Below are positions 1 through 5,621 of a DNA stretch of 6,450 bases, in pieces (within the stretch, counting starts at the first letter, position 1; each line of letters opens with the position of its first letter). Source of the DNA: a virus (taxonomy: Duplodnaviria > Heunggongvirae > Uroviricota > Caudoviricetes). Location of the stretch: IMG/VR virus record IMGVR_UViG_2711768018_000010; one strand, given 5' to 3'. Below the pieces are notes generated by a model that was not told the origin of the DNA, searched no databases, and was given only the letters and a program-made list of their open reading frames with translations. A program made the translations under genes and the position numbers.

Positions 1-69
1 TGTACTGGATTCGAACCAGTGACCGATTGCTTAGAAGGCAATTGCTCTGTCCGGCTGAGCTAACAACGC
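1..69 (-). tRNA. tRNA-Arg, anticodon UCU; 3' end truncated by the window edge
   Basis: Minus strand from 69 reads GCGTTGT-TA-GCTC-AGCCGGACA-GAGC-A-ATTGC-CTTCTAA-GCAAT-CGGTC-ACTGG-TTCGAAT-CCAGT-ACA. This gives a canonical cloverleaf: D stem GCTC/GAGC, anticodon stem ATTGC/GCAAT, T stem ACTGG/CCAGT, T loop TTCGAAT. The last 4 nt of the acceptor and the CCA lie beyond position 1. Confidence 0.85.
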
Positions 70-82
70 ATGATGCAGATAA

Positions 83-159
83 TGGACCGCCATCGGGGAC
101 TTGAACCCCGCGCAGCCAGCTTCGAAGGCTGGCGCTCTTTCCTGATGAGCTAATGGCGG
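83..159 (-). tRNA. tRNA-Arg, anticodon UCG, 77 nt with encoded CCA
   Basis: Minus strand 159 to 83 folds with a 7-bp acceptor stem (CCGCCAT/ATGGCGG), D stem GCTC/GAGC, anticodon stem CCAGC/GCTGG with loop CTTCGAA, T stem CGGGG/CCCCG with loop TTCAAGT, discriminator T and CCA. Confidence 0.85.
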
Positions 160-166
160 TATGTGA

Positions 167-243
167 TGGTGGCCCTTGCTGGATTTGAACCAGCGACCTG
201 GCGATTATGAGTCGCACTGGGTCATTTCCGATACGCCCTGCCT
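167..243 (-). tRNA. tRNA-like, anticodon CAU (Ile2/Met type, ileX/ileZ-like); only the 3' two-thirds is canonical, so possibly a pseudo-tRNA
   Basis: Minus strand 215 to 167 reads GCGA-CTCATAA-TCGC-CAGGTC-GCTGG-TTCAAAT-CCAGC-AAGGGCC-A-CCA, closely matching the 3' part of E. coli ileX as I recall it. The 5' side (243 to 216) has no GGCCCTT acceptor complement and no D stem. Confidence 0.45.
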
Positions 244-794: not shown

Positions 795-1767
795 GCCCGA
801 GCGCCAGTGCCGCTTTCACTGTCGAACCCAACCCCATGAAAAAATCTGCAATCAGGTCACCCGGACGACTGCTAGCGCTGATTATCTGCTGCAGCATTTC
901 TGCCGGTTTTTCGCACGGATGTTTCCCGGGATAGAACTGCACCGGTTTATGCGTCCACACATCGGTATACGGCACCTGCACCGTCACGCCAAAATACCGC
1001 CGCAGATGTTTATATTCACTCAGCAGCTCCGCATACTGCCGGTTCAGTGAGGTATACGTATCCACCAGCTGGTGGTGGAGCTTTTCCAGTTCACCACGCC
1101 GATGCTTCTCTTCTGCCACCCGGGCAAACAGCGCCTGTAATTTCAGATAATCGCTTTCATTCGGCAACTGCCACTGACCGGCACTGAACCAGTGCGACAC
1201 CATGTTTTTCTTTCCTGTGGCATCTGCAATCTGTTTTGCCGTTATCCCCAGGGCAGCTCGCGCATCACGAAAGTAAGAAATCAGCGGGGCCATCACATGC
1301 TGTTTCAGTGCACTGCCCTTCGCCGCATACCCGGCATCTTTCGGACGATACGGCCCCTGATAATGTTCCGCGAACAGAATGCGCTCTGTGGCGGGGAAAT
1401 ACGCCCGCAGGCTTTCCTTGTTGCATCCGTTCCAGCGTCCGGACGGCTTCGCCCAGATAATATGGTTCAGCACACTGAAGCGTTCACGCATCATGATTTC
1501 GATATCAGATGCCAGGCGATGACCACAGAACAGGTAAAGACTTCCGGCAGGTTTCAGCACCCGCCAGAACTGCGCCAGACACTGGTCCAGCCACTTCAGG
1601 TAATCATCGTCGCCCTTCCACTGGTTATCCCAGCCCTCAGGCTTCACTTTAAAGTACGGCGGGTCCGTGACTATCAGGTCAACAGAATTTTCGGGTAACG
1701 ACCGGATAAATTCCAGGCAGTCGGCGTTGATTAACTCACAACTGGATATTTTTACAGTATTAAGCAT
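795..1767 (-). CDS. DNA methyltransferase, N6-adenine/N4-cytosine type with beta-class motif order (DPPY before FxGxG); orphan, 3' end lost in the N gap
   Basis: ATG at 1767. The N-terminus carries ...DLIVTDPPYF... (motif IV) and the region just before the gap carries ...DFFMGLGSTVKAALALG (motif I, SAM binding), with an HTH-like insert between. 324 codons are visible before the gap. No restriction endonuclease partner is in the window. Confidence 0.85.
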
Positions 1768-1859
1768 GGATCATTAAGCCTGTCTCTGATAGGCTCATTC
1801 TGCTTTTGCGCAAAGCAGTGGGCCTGAGGTTTGCTTGTGAACCCAACGCATGAGCAGAT

Positions 1860-1890
1860 GGCTGGTGGGTGCCCCTAACACCCACCAGCC
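1860..1890. repeat. Perfect 12-bp inverted repeat (7-nt loop) carrying Chi octamers in both orientations
   Basis: GGCTGGTGGGTG-cccctaa-CACCCACCAGCC. The left arm contains GCTGGTGG (1861-1868) and the right arm its complement CCACCAGC (1882-1889). No U tract follows on either strand, so it is not a canonical terminator. Confidence 0.8.
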
Positions 1891-1902
1891 GCCCATTTAC
1901 CA

Positions 1903-1931
1903 CAAATAAAAAAGCCTTCACTGCGGAAGGC
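1903..1931 (-). terminator. Rho-independent terminator just after the 65-aa ORF
   Basis: Minus-strand RNA GCCUUC-cgcagu-GAAGGC (6-bp stem) is followed by UUUUUUAUUUG. The stop codon of the 65-aa ORF lies inside the stem. Confidence 0.7.
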
Positions 1932-2115
1932 GTCTGTAACAACCGAACTGATAGTCTGCCAGACCCGCCATAACCAGCTGGGTCAGTATTAACTGGCAGC
2001 GTTCGCGTGAAAGGTAAGTATTCTGCGCTATCTCCCCGACTGTCGCCGGTTCGGTAACGCTTAATTCATTAAACACCACTCTGGCGGTTTCTGTCATATC
2101 CTGCTGTTTTAGCAT
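1918..2115 (-). CDS. Small hypothetical protein (65 aa), probable winged-helix/HTH DNA-binding fold
   Basis: ATG at 2115 is preceded by AAAAGGAAAAGAC (SD-like). The segment TVGEIAQNTYLSRERCQLILTQLVMAGLA has a helix-turn-helix-like pattern. It sits between two intrinsic terminators, downstream of PR'. Confidence 0.6.
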   Translation of the reverse strand: MLKQQDMTETARVVFNELSVTEPATVGEIAQNTYLSRERCQLILTQLVMAGLADYQFGCYRRLPQ

Positions 2116-5074: not shown

Positions 5075-5106
5075 AAAATAAAAACAAAAACCCGCCGAAG
5101 CGGGTT
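5075..5106 (-). terminator. Rho-independent terminator of the hok transcript
   Basis: Minus-strand RNA CCCGC-uucg-GCGGG (5-bp GC stem, UUCG tetraloop) is followed by UUUUUGUUUUUAUUUUC. Confidence 0.75.
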
Positions 5107-5174
5107 AAGTGTGGGTGCATTGAGGATGCCTGCCCCATCAGAGGTGGCGAGGGATTTCTCCCCCGCCTGGTCTC

Positions 5175-5330
5175 TTACTCCTCAGGTTCGTAAGCTGTGA
5201 AGACAGCGACCTCCGTCTGGCCGGTTCGAATTCGTACCTCGCAGAGGTCTTTCCTCGTTACCAGTGCCGTCACTATGACGGTTAAACAGATGACGATCAG
5301 GGCGATTAACATCGCCTTTTGCTGCTTCAT
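5175..5330 (-). CDS. hokD: Hok-family type I toxin (51 aa), HokD/RelF-like
   Basis: MKQQKAMLIALIVICLTVIVTALVTRKDLCEVRIRTGQTEVAVFTAYEPEE matches K-12 HokD (RelF) as I recall it and has the Hok single transmembrane helix. ATG at 5330 lies 9 nt after AAGGAG. Confidence 0.85.
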   Translation of the reverse strand: MKQQKAMLIALIVICLTVIVTALVTRKDLCEVRIRTGQTEVAVFTAYEPEE

Positions 5331-5387
5331 AGCCTGCTTCTCCTTGCCTTTCGGCACGTAAGAGGCTAACCTAGATTTGCCGTTCAT
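5175..5387 (-). CDS. mok-like in-frame upstream reading frame (70 codons) overlapping hok
   Basis: An in-frame ATG at 5387 (GAGG 8 nt upstream) extends Hok by 19 residues (MNGKSRLASYVPKGKEKQA). In hok/mok loci, as I recall the K-12 annotation, mok is an N-terminally extended frame sharing the hok stop (mokC 69 aa versus hokC 50 aa). Confidence 0.5.
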   Translation of the reverse strand: MNGKSRLASYVPKGKEKQAMKQQKAMLIALIVICLTVIVTALVTRKDLCEVRIRTGQTEVAVFTAYEPEE

Positions 5388-5621
5388 AGATTGAGCCTCA
5401 GATTAATGTTAAGCGTCTTGCCGGACGCGTAATGTTAACTGGGGCTTTTCTCTATCTGCCTTTTGGTGTTCATGCCTGAGACAGATAGCCTCAAGCACCC
5501 GCTGCAATTCTACTTAACTCTCCTTTTCCCGCAAACCGTTTTTATCCCCAGCGGCAAATCGAATACACCACCAGCGCCACCGCCATCGCAATTCCTACCG
5601 TTGTTAATGCTTCAGGCCAGG

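Follow-up and report, generated by a model that had tools for sequence, protein, structure and literature searches.

What is the function of a perfect inverted repeat that carries a Chi site on each arm and lies ahead of a phage DNA methylase gene? The question is raised by a 6,450-nucleotide (nt) stretch of tailed-phage DNA (Caudoviricetes; IMG/VR record IMGVR_UViG_2711768018_000010), here called the window, in which the repeat (1860-1890) and a smaller hairpin (1800-1818) precede the ATG of a methylase gene assigned to the M.EcoGII family. An earlier, sequence-only reading treated the two hairpins as separate sites, proposed that RecBCD entering from either side would meet an active Chi at the repeat, and listed an operator, an RNase III site and a recombination hotspot as possible roles. 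We find that the palindrome feature is real and conserved and that the doubling of Chi in it is largely incidental; what deserves attention is a candidate for a new structured RNA, the leader of prophage methylases of the M.EcoGII family. The hairpins are not separate sites, as both are helices (P2 and P4, respectively) of one larger conserved element, which is very probably a structured RNA. On balance, we favour the view that this element is a cis-acting leader RNA controlling the methylase, with a two-state fold as the most likely mechanism.

The repeat itself was described correctly. It consists of GGCTGGTGGGTG (1860-1871), cccctaa (1872-1878) and CACCCACCAGCC (1879-1890), and an inverted-repeat search of the window confirmed that the 12-nt arms are 100% complementary across a spacer of 7 nt. 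This is the sole perfect inverted repeat of at least 12 nt with close-set arms in the window, for a chance expectation of ~0.007 perfect 12-bp inverted repeats with a short loop per 6.2 kb (6200 positions × ~18 loop sizes × 4^-12); the same search found no larger inverted repeats joining the other Chi sites of the window. The Chi octamer 5'-GCTGGTGG-3' is present once per arm, at 1861-1868 on the plus strand and at 1882-1889 on the minus strand. The hairpin is also as stable as had been supposed: in isolation it folds with -26.5 kcal/mol as minus-strand RNA and -24.5 kcal/mol as plus-strand RNA, and the surrounding 186-nt region is more stable than 200 of 200 shuffles on both strands (z = -3.4 and -5.2), hence non-random. 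No U tract follows it on either strand (the minus side continues AUCUGCUCAU, the plus side GCCCAUUUACC). The second hairpin, CTGCTTT-tgcgc-AAAGCAG at 1800-1818, exists as 7 bp, and no U tract follows it either. One correction concerns the methylase gene, which is on the minus strand (ATG at 1767-1765), so that both hairpins lie in its 5' leader as read on that strand.

Read on the minus strand, the whole conserved leader runs from UGUGGUAAAU to the methylase AUG (1909-1765), where covariance model R1 scores 138.7 bits (E ~1e-37). A non-coding block of ~140 nt precedes the methylase ATG in every readable methylase locus, ~250 in all. In a methylase-anchored search, which placed no selection on the RNA, the leader ends at the ATG in 156 of 156 readable metagenome and IMG/VR loci. 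It is likewise present in 20 of 20 species-representative loci reached via the 65-amino-acid (aa) open reading frame (ORF) that is its usual upstream neighbour; homologues of this ORF were found in 24 species-representative genomes, all with the block between the ORF's terminator and a methylase of 347-355 aa. A Providencia-anchored search added 79 divergent loci, with the leader recognisable in 53 of 53 distinct upstream sequences and shortened in the most distant. The hosts include Escherichia, Salmonella, Klebsiella, Kluyvera, Citrobacter, Buttiauxella, Mixta, Scandinavium, Mangrovibacter and Providencia, in addition to metagenomes. The covariance model matches every locus once and once only, invariably up to the methylase ATG, and has a single match in each of two whole prophage loci, L124 (40 kb) and L125 (35 kb). 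The sequence-only reading had proposed conservation in homologous prophages as its own test, and the palindrome, when sought there, proved to be kept.

The block is non-coding, because 1-nt insertions and deletions scattered through it among relatives break every frame; a 60-aa ORF at 1760-1942 (-) is spurious on the same grounds. In Rfam 15 no family matched at the gathering score or at a relaxed E-value, the S-adenosylmethionine (SAM) and S-adenosylhomocysteine (SAH) classes included (best hit P26, 24.2 bits versus 36 required, on the plus strand), and we found no paper in the literature on the leader, its sequence, or an EcoGII leader or riboswitch. The methylase homologues furthest from the Providencia enzyme (72-75% identity to it; L372-L388 among the IMG/VR loci of the Providencia-anchored search) have a leader of only ~95 nt; it keeps GUGAAAUGG, a P2-like hairpin (GGCUGGUG/CACCAGCC, GGCAGG/CCUGCC, GGCGGGG/CCUCGCC) and AUUCGCC, and the full 3' domain is gone.

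Folding of 22 diverse leaders with RNAalifold gave five helices with 30 pairs, 8 of them compensated: P1 (UGGGC:GCCCA), P2, P3 (UNGCU:AGCN'A), P4, and P5 (AGUGAGC:GCUUACU), which ends 8 nt before the AUG. P2 is the palindrome, with GGCUGGUGGGUG (1890-1879) as its 5' arm, UUAGGGG (1878-1872) as its loop and CACCCACCAGCC (1871-1860) as its 3' arm. Its 33 distinct variants all fold, and most relatives outside E. coli have a 3' arm of 13 nt (CACCC-NN-CCAGCC), which puts the U in the middle of the Chi arm into a small internal loop. P4 (1818-1800; CUGCUUU-GCGCA-AAAGCAG) keeps 5-6 bp in relatives, where loss of the outer U-A pair goes with gain of an inner A-U (CCGCUUUAGCGCUAAAGC versus CUGCUUUAGCGCAAAAGCA, as read from the alignment). 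One pair of P3 occurs as C-G, A-U and U-A in 18, 18 and 12 of 52 sequences, respectively, and in one Mixta sequence (L148) a G>A/C>U double change preserves a pair of P1. Among the arm combinations of P2 are GACUGUAAAAGUG/CACCUUUACAGUC, GACAGUGAGGAUG/CAUCCCCACUGUC and GACCGAUGAGUG/CACACAUCGGUC.

Covariation is present for P1, P2, P3 and P5. In the 22-sequence alignment (A3), 96.4% of the cells in predicted pairs are paired (92.9% in P5), versus 25-44% in slid controls, and the 8 compensated pairs compare with 2.1±1.1 after shuffling (0 of 500 shuffles reach 8). The second alignment (A5) holds 63 distinct sequences taken from matches to the covariance model, which had been derived from A3; it was fitted to the model structure, so that its pair counts lean toward that structure, and in it 20 of 30 pairs are compensated versus 14.1±1.3 shuffled (0 of 500), with 86.9% paired versus 32-48% in slid controls. 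For P2 the A5 figures are 95.9% paired and compensatory changes in 7 of 10 pairs.

The pattern of variation also points to one strand. Among ~120 IMG/VR loci of E. coli phages, found via the neighbouring terminator, the arm GGCUGGUGGGUG (-) is nearly invariant and the opposite arm varies (CACUCACCAGCC, CACCUGCCAGCC, CACCUGUCAGUC). The perfect palindrome, with its second Chi, is one allele carried by about a third of these loci; GGCTGGTGAGTG is a common allele that is not perfect. In the common variants the minus-strand stem is kept via G.U pairs, at -23 to -26 kcal/mol (-14.9 with four G.U), whereas the plus strand acquires C.A mismatches. Pairing in the three local helices, over 26 distinct E. 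coli-phage alleles, amounts to 99.2% for minus-strand and 90.5% for plus-strand RNA. The 3' sides of stems carry 8 transitions and no transversions, versus 10 and 13 at unpaired positions (hypergeometric p ~0.006). An RNA-level role, one option in the sequence-only reading in the form of RNase III processing, is the best-supported class of explanation.

How might such an RNA act? Several of its segments have two conserved partners. Segment a (AUGGGC, 1896-1891) can pair with GCUCAU (1855-1850), which lengthens P2 to ~18-20 bp, or with GCCCA (1823-1819), which forms the long-range P1; both pairings are 95-100% conserved. Segment b (UCUGCUCAU, 1858-1850) contains the 5' strand of P3, UCUGCU (1858-1853), which overlaps the GCUCAU that pairs with segment a. 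From segment c (GUUCACAAGCAAA, 1842-1830) comes the 3' strand of P3, AGCAAA at 1835-1830; the same segment can instead pair with the sequence that immediately precedes the start codon (P6). Segment d (GGCCCAC, 1824-1818) may pair with segment a in P1 or with segment e (UGAGCC, 1797-1792), and segment f (GCUUAAUGAUCC, 1779-1768) with e in P5 or, alternatively, with c, where 1779-1769 would face 1842-1833, covering positions -12 to -2. Two complete, mutually exclusive folds result: fold A has a:d (P1), b:c (P3) and e:f (P5), fold B has a:b, c:f and d:e, and the two have P2 and P4 in common. Each helix set is conserved in leaders of the enterobacterial and of the Providencia type (92-100% paired in the former), and the c:f helix changes from AAGC:GCUU to GGAC:GUUC between the lineages. 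In 35 of 42 enterobacterial-type leaders the minimum free energy belongs to fold B, in which -12 to -2 of the start region are paired; the penalty for fold A averages 4.7 kcal/mol and is within 3 kcal/mol in 25 of 61.

These alternatives suggest a two-state translational mechanism, which we put forward tentatively and rate a little short of an even chance. The leader RNA would be read on the minus strand within the Q-antiterminated late transcript. In the ground state, fold B, positions -12 to -2 before an AUG that lacks a Shine-Dalgarno sequence and follows a nearly invariant GAUC would be paired with GGUCAC-AAGC; in fold A, the other state, that sequence would be taken up by P3 and the start region freed. 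P2 would be a stable anchoring helix in both states, and with its flanking stem would make a duplex of 18-20 bp that could also serve as a nuclease or stability determinant. The leader would be off by default and turned on by some late signal or by RNA processing at the P2 duplex. A default-off state would fit a gene that the lysogen has to keep silent (PMC5778455). It is conceivable that SAM or SAH status is the signal. The fullest version of the idea, that of an undescribed bistable riboregulator (riboswitch-like, or triggered by protein or RNA) that holds a toxic methyltransferase off until a late-infection signal, with one helix doubling as a Chi in active orientation, we regard as rather improbable. 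As DNA, the tetranucleotide before the AUG is GATC, a Dam site at 1772-1769 (-), -5 to -2 of the AUG, and is nearly invariant across the leaders examined.

The likeness to translational riboswitches and leader switches lies in a conserved non-coding leader before a single gene family, in covarying helices, and in two complete alternative pairing schemes of comparable energy, one of which covers the start region. It differs from them in that there is no Rfam match, SAM and SAH classes included, in that the switch is a prediction, and in that the methylase AUG has no recognisable Shine-Dalgarno sequence before it to sequester.

We infer from comparison that the leader acts in cis on methylase expression, and several observations weigh against this view. 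The missing Shine-Dalgarno sequence is one of them, and no ligand or effector for the leader was identified. The regulatory role and the two-state model are both based on sequence comparison and energy calculations; the A5 counts lean as described, and part of the covariation, above all that of the c:f helix, amounts to a single split between two lineages. The 5' half of the leader (AAUGGGCGGCUGGUGGGUGUU) is far more conserved than pairing alone needs, making a sequence-specific DNA or protein-binding function of this half, Chi included, possible. In addition, Stx2k-type phages in which the methylase is replaced retain P2 without the rest of the leader, and 14 loci with the methylase deleted retain only its 5' arm. 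Since P2 or its 5' arm outlasts the methylase in these phages, P2 may have a function of its own.

The matter is of interest beyond this locus in view of what the enzyme does. M.EcoGII, the founder of its family, is a non-specific adenine methyltransferase that is toxic under constitutive expression and silent in the lysogen (PMC5778455). Members of the family, which methylate adenine in any sequence context, are widespread in Shiga toxin (Stx) phages and other lambdoid prophages and are sold as a biotechnology reagent, and in the literature searched we found no description of how phages restrain them. A conserved, covarying leader with two terminators on one side and the gene on the other is a concrete, testable candidate for such control, and it lies in the same late transcript as the tRNAs and, in related phages, stx.

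We then considered Chi as a DNA signal. Chi is the commonest octamer of the window, with 10 copies versus 0.2 expected from shuffles (the next octamer has 5); ~1.4 copies would be expected at the E. coli average. In L124, a whole prophage whose leader is identical, 13 of its 17 Chi fall within 5.8 kb (17846-23661) from hok to holin, by the cos/terminase end, with 12 of the 17 in late-sense and 5 in antisense orientation, and L125 has the same pattern (7721-14220). Across 160 methylase loci the density is 1.15 per kb in sense versus 0.31 per kb in antisense. The late, lysis and terminase genes lie toward low coordinates, and of the two Chi sites of P2 only the minus-strand copy would be met from its 3' side by RecBCD entering at the right (cos) end; the plus-strand copy is oriented the opposite way. 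The RefSeq annotation of both prophages lists an exonuclease of 812-823 aa and, as far as the annotation goes, no Gam, Abc2 or annealing protein. Lambdoid phages without a Rec module or RecBCD inhibitor are known to carry right-end Chi clusters, in which top-strand Chi is active for RecBCD entry from the right end (Zheng et al. 2025, PMC12315714; for the clusters, also Bobay et al. 2013, PMC3784561). The Chi enrichment of the region is already published (PMC12315714), and the sense Chi of P2 (1889-1882, minus strand; top strand in lambda map orientation) is one member of such a cluster. The common ground is a lambdoid genome with Chi as its commonest octamer, a location from Q to lysis by cos, a mostly late-sense orientation and no annotated Gam-like inhibitor. 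The clusters described there, however, are of isolated DNA octamers, whereas here one Chi forms part of the 5' arm in an RNA helix that covaries, and in Providencia-type phages the hairpin outlives the Chi; we found no mention of palindromes or hairpins in PMC12315714.

The two Chi sites of P2 have different fates among homologues, as counted in three sets of 156, 20 and 121 loci. The sense Chi is kept in 151, 18 and 114 of these, respectively. The plus-strand Chi (1861-1868) is present in 5, 4 and 44 (3%, 20% and 36%) and in 7 of the 33 P2 variants; it is lost via C>U, A>G or a 1-nt bulge, and the minus-strand RNA stem is preserved every time. The opposite-strand Chi is thus not conserved, and is largely an incidental by-product of a perfectly complementary 3' arm in some E. 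coli-phage alleles. This goes against the proposal that two opposed Chi sites form an element for RecBCD arriving from either side, and leaves a predicted active Chi on one arm only, in the right orientation for entry from the lysis/cos end. Even the sense octamer is conserved no better than its flanking bases, and within the conserved 5' half no position but its central T, a predicted unpaired base, varies recurrently in the enterobacterial set. Among Providencia-type leaders, 49 of 79 have no Chi in the hairpin-containing part and keep the hairpin by compensatory changes on both arms, indicating that the hairpin is the deeper constraint and that Chi is maybe additional and lineage-specific. 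One sequence may thus come under two constraints, as an RNA helix and as a DNA Chi site, and Chi-containing palindromes should not be taken as designed double hotspots.

These counts bear directly on the two explanations that act through recombination. A bidirectional hotspot, in which the palindrome would present Chi both ways, could draw on the two octamers, on the strong Chi enrichment of the region and on a second opposed pair, CCACCAGCTGGTGG at 1062-1075 (2-nt overlap), both octamers of which are found in 107 of 160 homologues. That pair lies inside the methylase ORF and is explained by the codons of a conserved methylase peptide, HHQLV; the plus-strand Chi is scarce and dispensable for the stem, the central T of the sense Chi is variable, and leaders without Chi still have the hairpin. 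Mosaic breakpoints at or near P2 in three lineages were a further argument for it: homology stops at 1878, in the P2 loop, for 15 loci and at 1844 for 7, and the 3' arm is duplicated in the hybrid locus L104. We nevertheless make no hotspot claim, because each breakpoint class probably goes back to one ancestral event (deletion of the methylase in one class, a replacement in another), and a mosaic junction or recombination scar was rejected as an identity for the palindrome. We consider a hotspot very unlikely. The other explanation, that the sense Chi alone matters, as a unit of the right-end cluster that lets Gam-less lambdoid phages use RecBCD, with the hairpin secondary, is doubtful but deserves more weight. 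Its orientation is correct, its conservation is high, it survives in the 14 loci from which the remainder of the leader is gone, and the two full prophages examined are without an annotated RecBCD inhibitor. It does not account for flanking non-Chi bases that are equally conserved, for the double changes that keep the stem in the Chi-less Providencia-type leaders, or for a covarying structure that spans the whole 140 nt. Such a role is compatible with a leader RNA as a second, overlapping function.

The remaining explanations concern transcription, processing and protein binding. Cleavage by RNase III or another nuclease, or a stability function, at the predicted 18-20-bp duplex that P2 makes with the stem flanking it, asymmetric loop of 4 nt included, might uncouple the methylase/tRNA/stx RNA from upstream sequences. 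Predictions for the window and most relatives include the extended helix, its flanking stem AUGGGC:GCUCAU shows G.U to G-C and U-A to U.G changes, and both stems persist in the Stx2k-type phages that lack the methylase. The lambda RNase III sites in the N leader and at sib are alike in that the leader of a phage operon has a long, imperfectly paired duplex interrupted by an internal loop, through which processing could be coupled to translation; here the duplex is predicted and only ~18-20 bp, the short end for RNase III substrates, and most of the conserved element lies outside it. As the conserved 3' two-thirds of the leader and the covariation of P3 would be left unexplained, we find this account unlikely. 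A separate promoter with P2 as a 5'-terminal stabilising hairpin would make UGUG(N)AAAU upstream of P2 an extended -10 element, with transcripts starting at the foot of P2. Even the most distant of the short leaders keep this flank, TGTGAAAAT resembles TGnTATAAT, and TGTGGTAAAT at 1904-1895 repeats the -10 region of a pR'-like promoter at 2317-2308. Yet a promoter scan gave no match, there is no -35 element, -11A, -7T and the spacing are not kept among variants, and M.EcoGII is reported to be silent in lysogens (PMC5778455), which together make such a promoter quite improbable. Least credible of all, to our mind, is a DNA operator for the 65-aa winged-helix-like protein, after the manner of restriction-modification controller proteins. 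Palindromes are typical operators, and this helix-turn-helix-like small ORF lies directly upstream of the methylase in 141 of 160 loci. The dyad symmetry, however, is not conserved at the DNA level, with arms of 12 versus 13 nt in most relatives and strand-specific, G.U-type variation that leaves C.A mismatches on the plus strand; the leader is intact where unrelated genes replace the ORF, and the match of the protein to a TrmB domain is under the Pfam cut-off.

Other identities were rejected for parts of the leader. P2 shares with intrinsic terminators, including the tR' type read through under Q, a GC-rich stem-loop and a position in the late operon after Q and a pR'-like promoter; lacking a U tract on both strands, and with the terminator scan silent there, it falls outside the class, and true terminator-like hairpins are found nearby at 2259-2240 and 1931-1914. 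A sigma-70 promoter was rejected on a negative scan and on the inconsistency of the -10-like UGUGNAAAU across variants. ARAGORN and Rfam gave no tRNA match at the leader. A G-quadruplex was discounted, with only three runs of at least three G and a loop G run that is not conserved, as read from alignments. The 14 methylase-less loci mentioned above (L005, L024, L032 and 11 other IMG/VR loci) also lack most of the leader; their homology ends at 1878, with the Chi-bearing 5' arm followed ~90 nt on by an STnc100-like RNA.

The late region is lambdoid and Stx-phage-like, and all real genes of the window are on the minus strand. The window itself is absent from the complete E. coli collection, where the best match is 97.1% identical over 92% of its length. 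The transcription order is hok/sok, DUF968, RusA, a 273-aa Q antiterminator (PF03589), the 65-aa ORF, the methylase (PF01555), the STnc100-like RNA and tRNAs. The same module order (Q, small ORF, methylase, tRNAs, and stx in the Stx2/phiP27 region) is annotated in phiP27, many Stx2a phages and phage 1720a-02. The methylase gene (1767-795, -) encodes a beta-class N6/N4 enzyme with a DPPY motif (PF01555, E 2e-35). We assigned it to the M.EcoGII family through its likeness to phage 1720a-02, in which the leader region and the first methylase bases are 95% identical to the window and the gene is annotated as 'DNA methyl transferase'; the methylase of that phage is very similar to M.EcoGII (PMC5778455). 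Positions 545-794 are a masked run of 250 N, which hides the 3' end of the gene, and the 444-aa ORF called here is an artefact of reading through this run, as relatives have 347-355 aa. A repeated flank was looked for beyond the far end of the methylase cassette; there the window is masked by N, and the downstream arrangement in L124 is a different one.

Upstream, the 65-aa winged-helix-like ORF (2115-1918, -; TrmB domain, 18 bits) is replaced by unrelated genes in the loci where it does not precede the methylase. It ends at an intrinsic-terminator-like hairpin just 5' of the leader (1931-1904, -; GCCUUC-CGCAGU-GAAGGC followed by U6AUUU), with a stem that is conserved among relatives and a loop that is variable; the palindrome starts 23 nt downstream of the stem-loop proper (1931-1914). 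After Q on the minus strand come TTGATT (2334-2329), a 16-nt spacer, TAAATT (2312-2307), AACGATGGG (2300-2292) and the terminator-like hairpin at 2259-2240 with its T run. We take 2334-2232 (-) to resemble a lambda-type pR'/tR' region, from which the pR' RNA would be ~60 nt. The 10-mer TGTGGTAAAT occurs both in the -10 region of this pR'-like promoter (2317-2308, -) and at the leader start (1904-1895, -), and could mark a second promoter, a sigma-70 pause element or a chance repeat.

The window holds several further matches to known RNAs. An isrK-like match at 5085-5166 (-) is weak (25.8 bits versus a gathering score of 50, E = 0.017), is overlapped by an rsmX match and is probably due to chance; isrK is a prophage-borne RNA in Salmonella. 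Within 1-237 (-), two tRNAs score over the Rfam gathering score and a third under it, and ARAGORN calls only tRNA-Arg(tcg) at 83-159. Two other matches exceed their gathering scores: sok at 5325-5500 (-; 112.4 bits), beside a hok-type ORF, and STnc100 at 327-516 (-; 123.6 bits), which lies directly downstream of the masked stretch and overlaps the artefactual tail of the 444-aa ORF.

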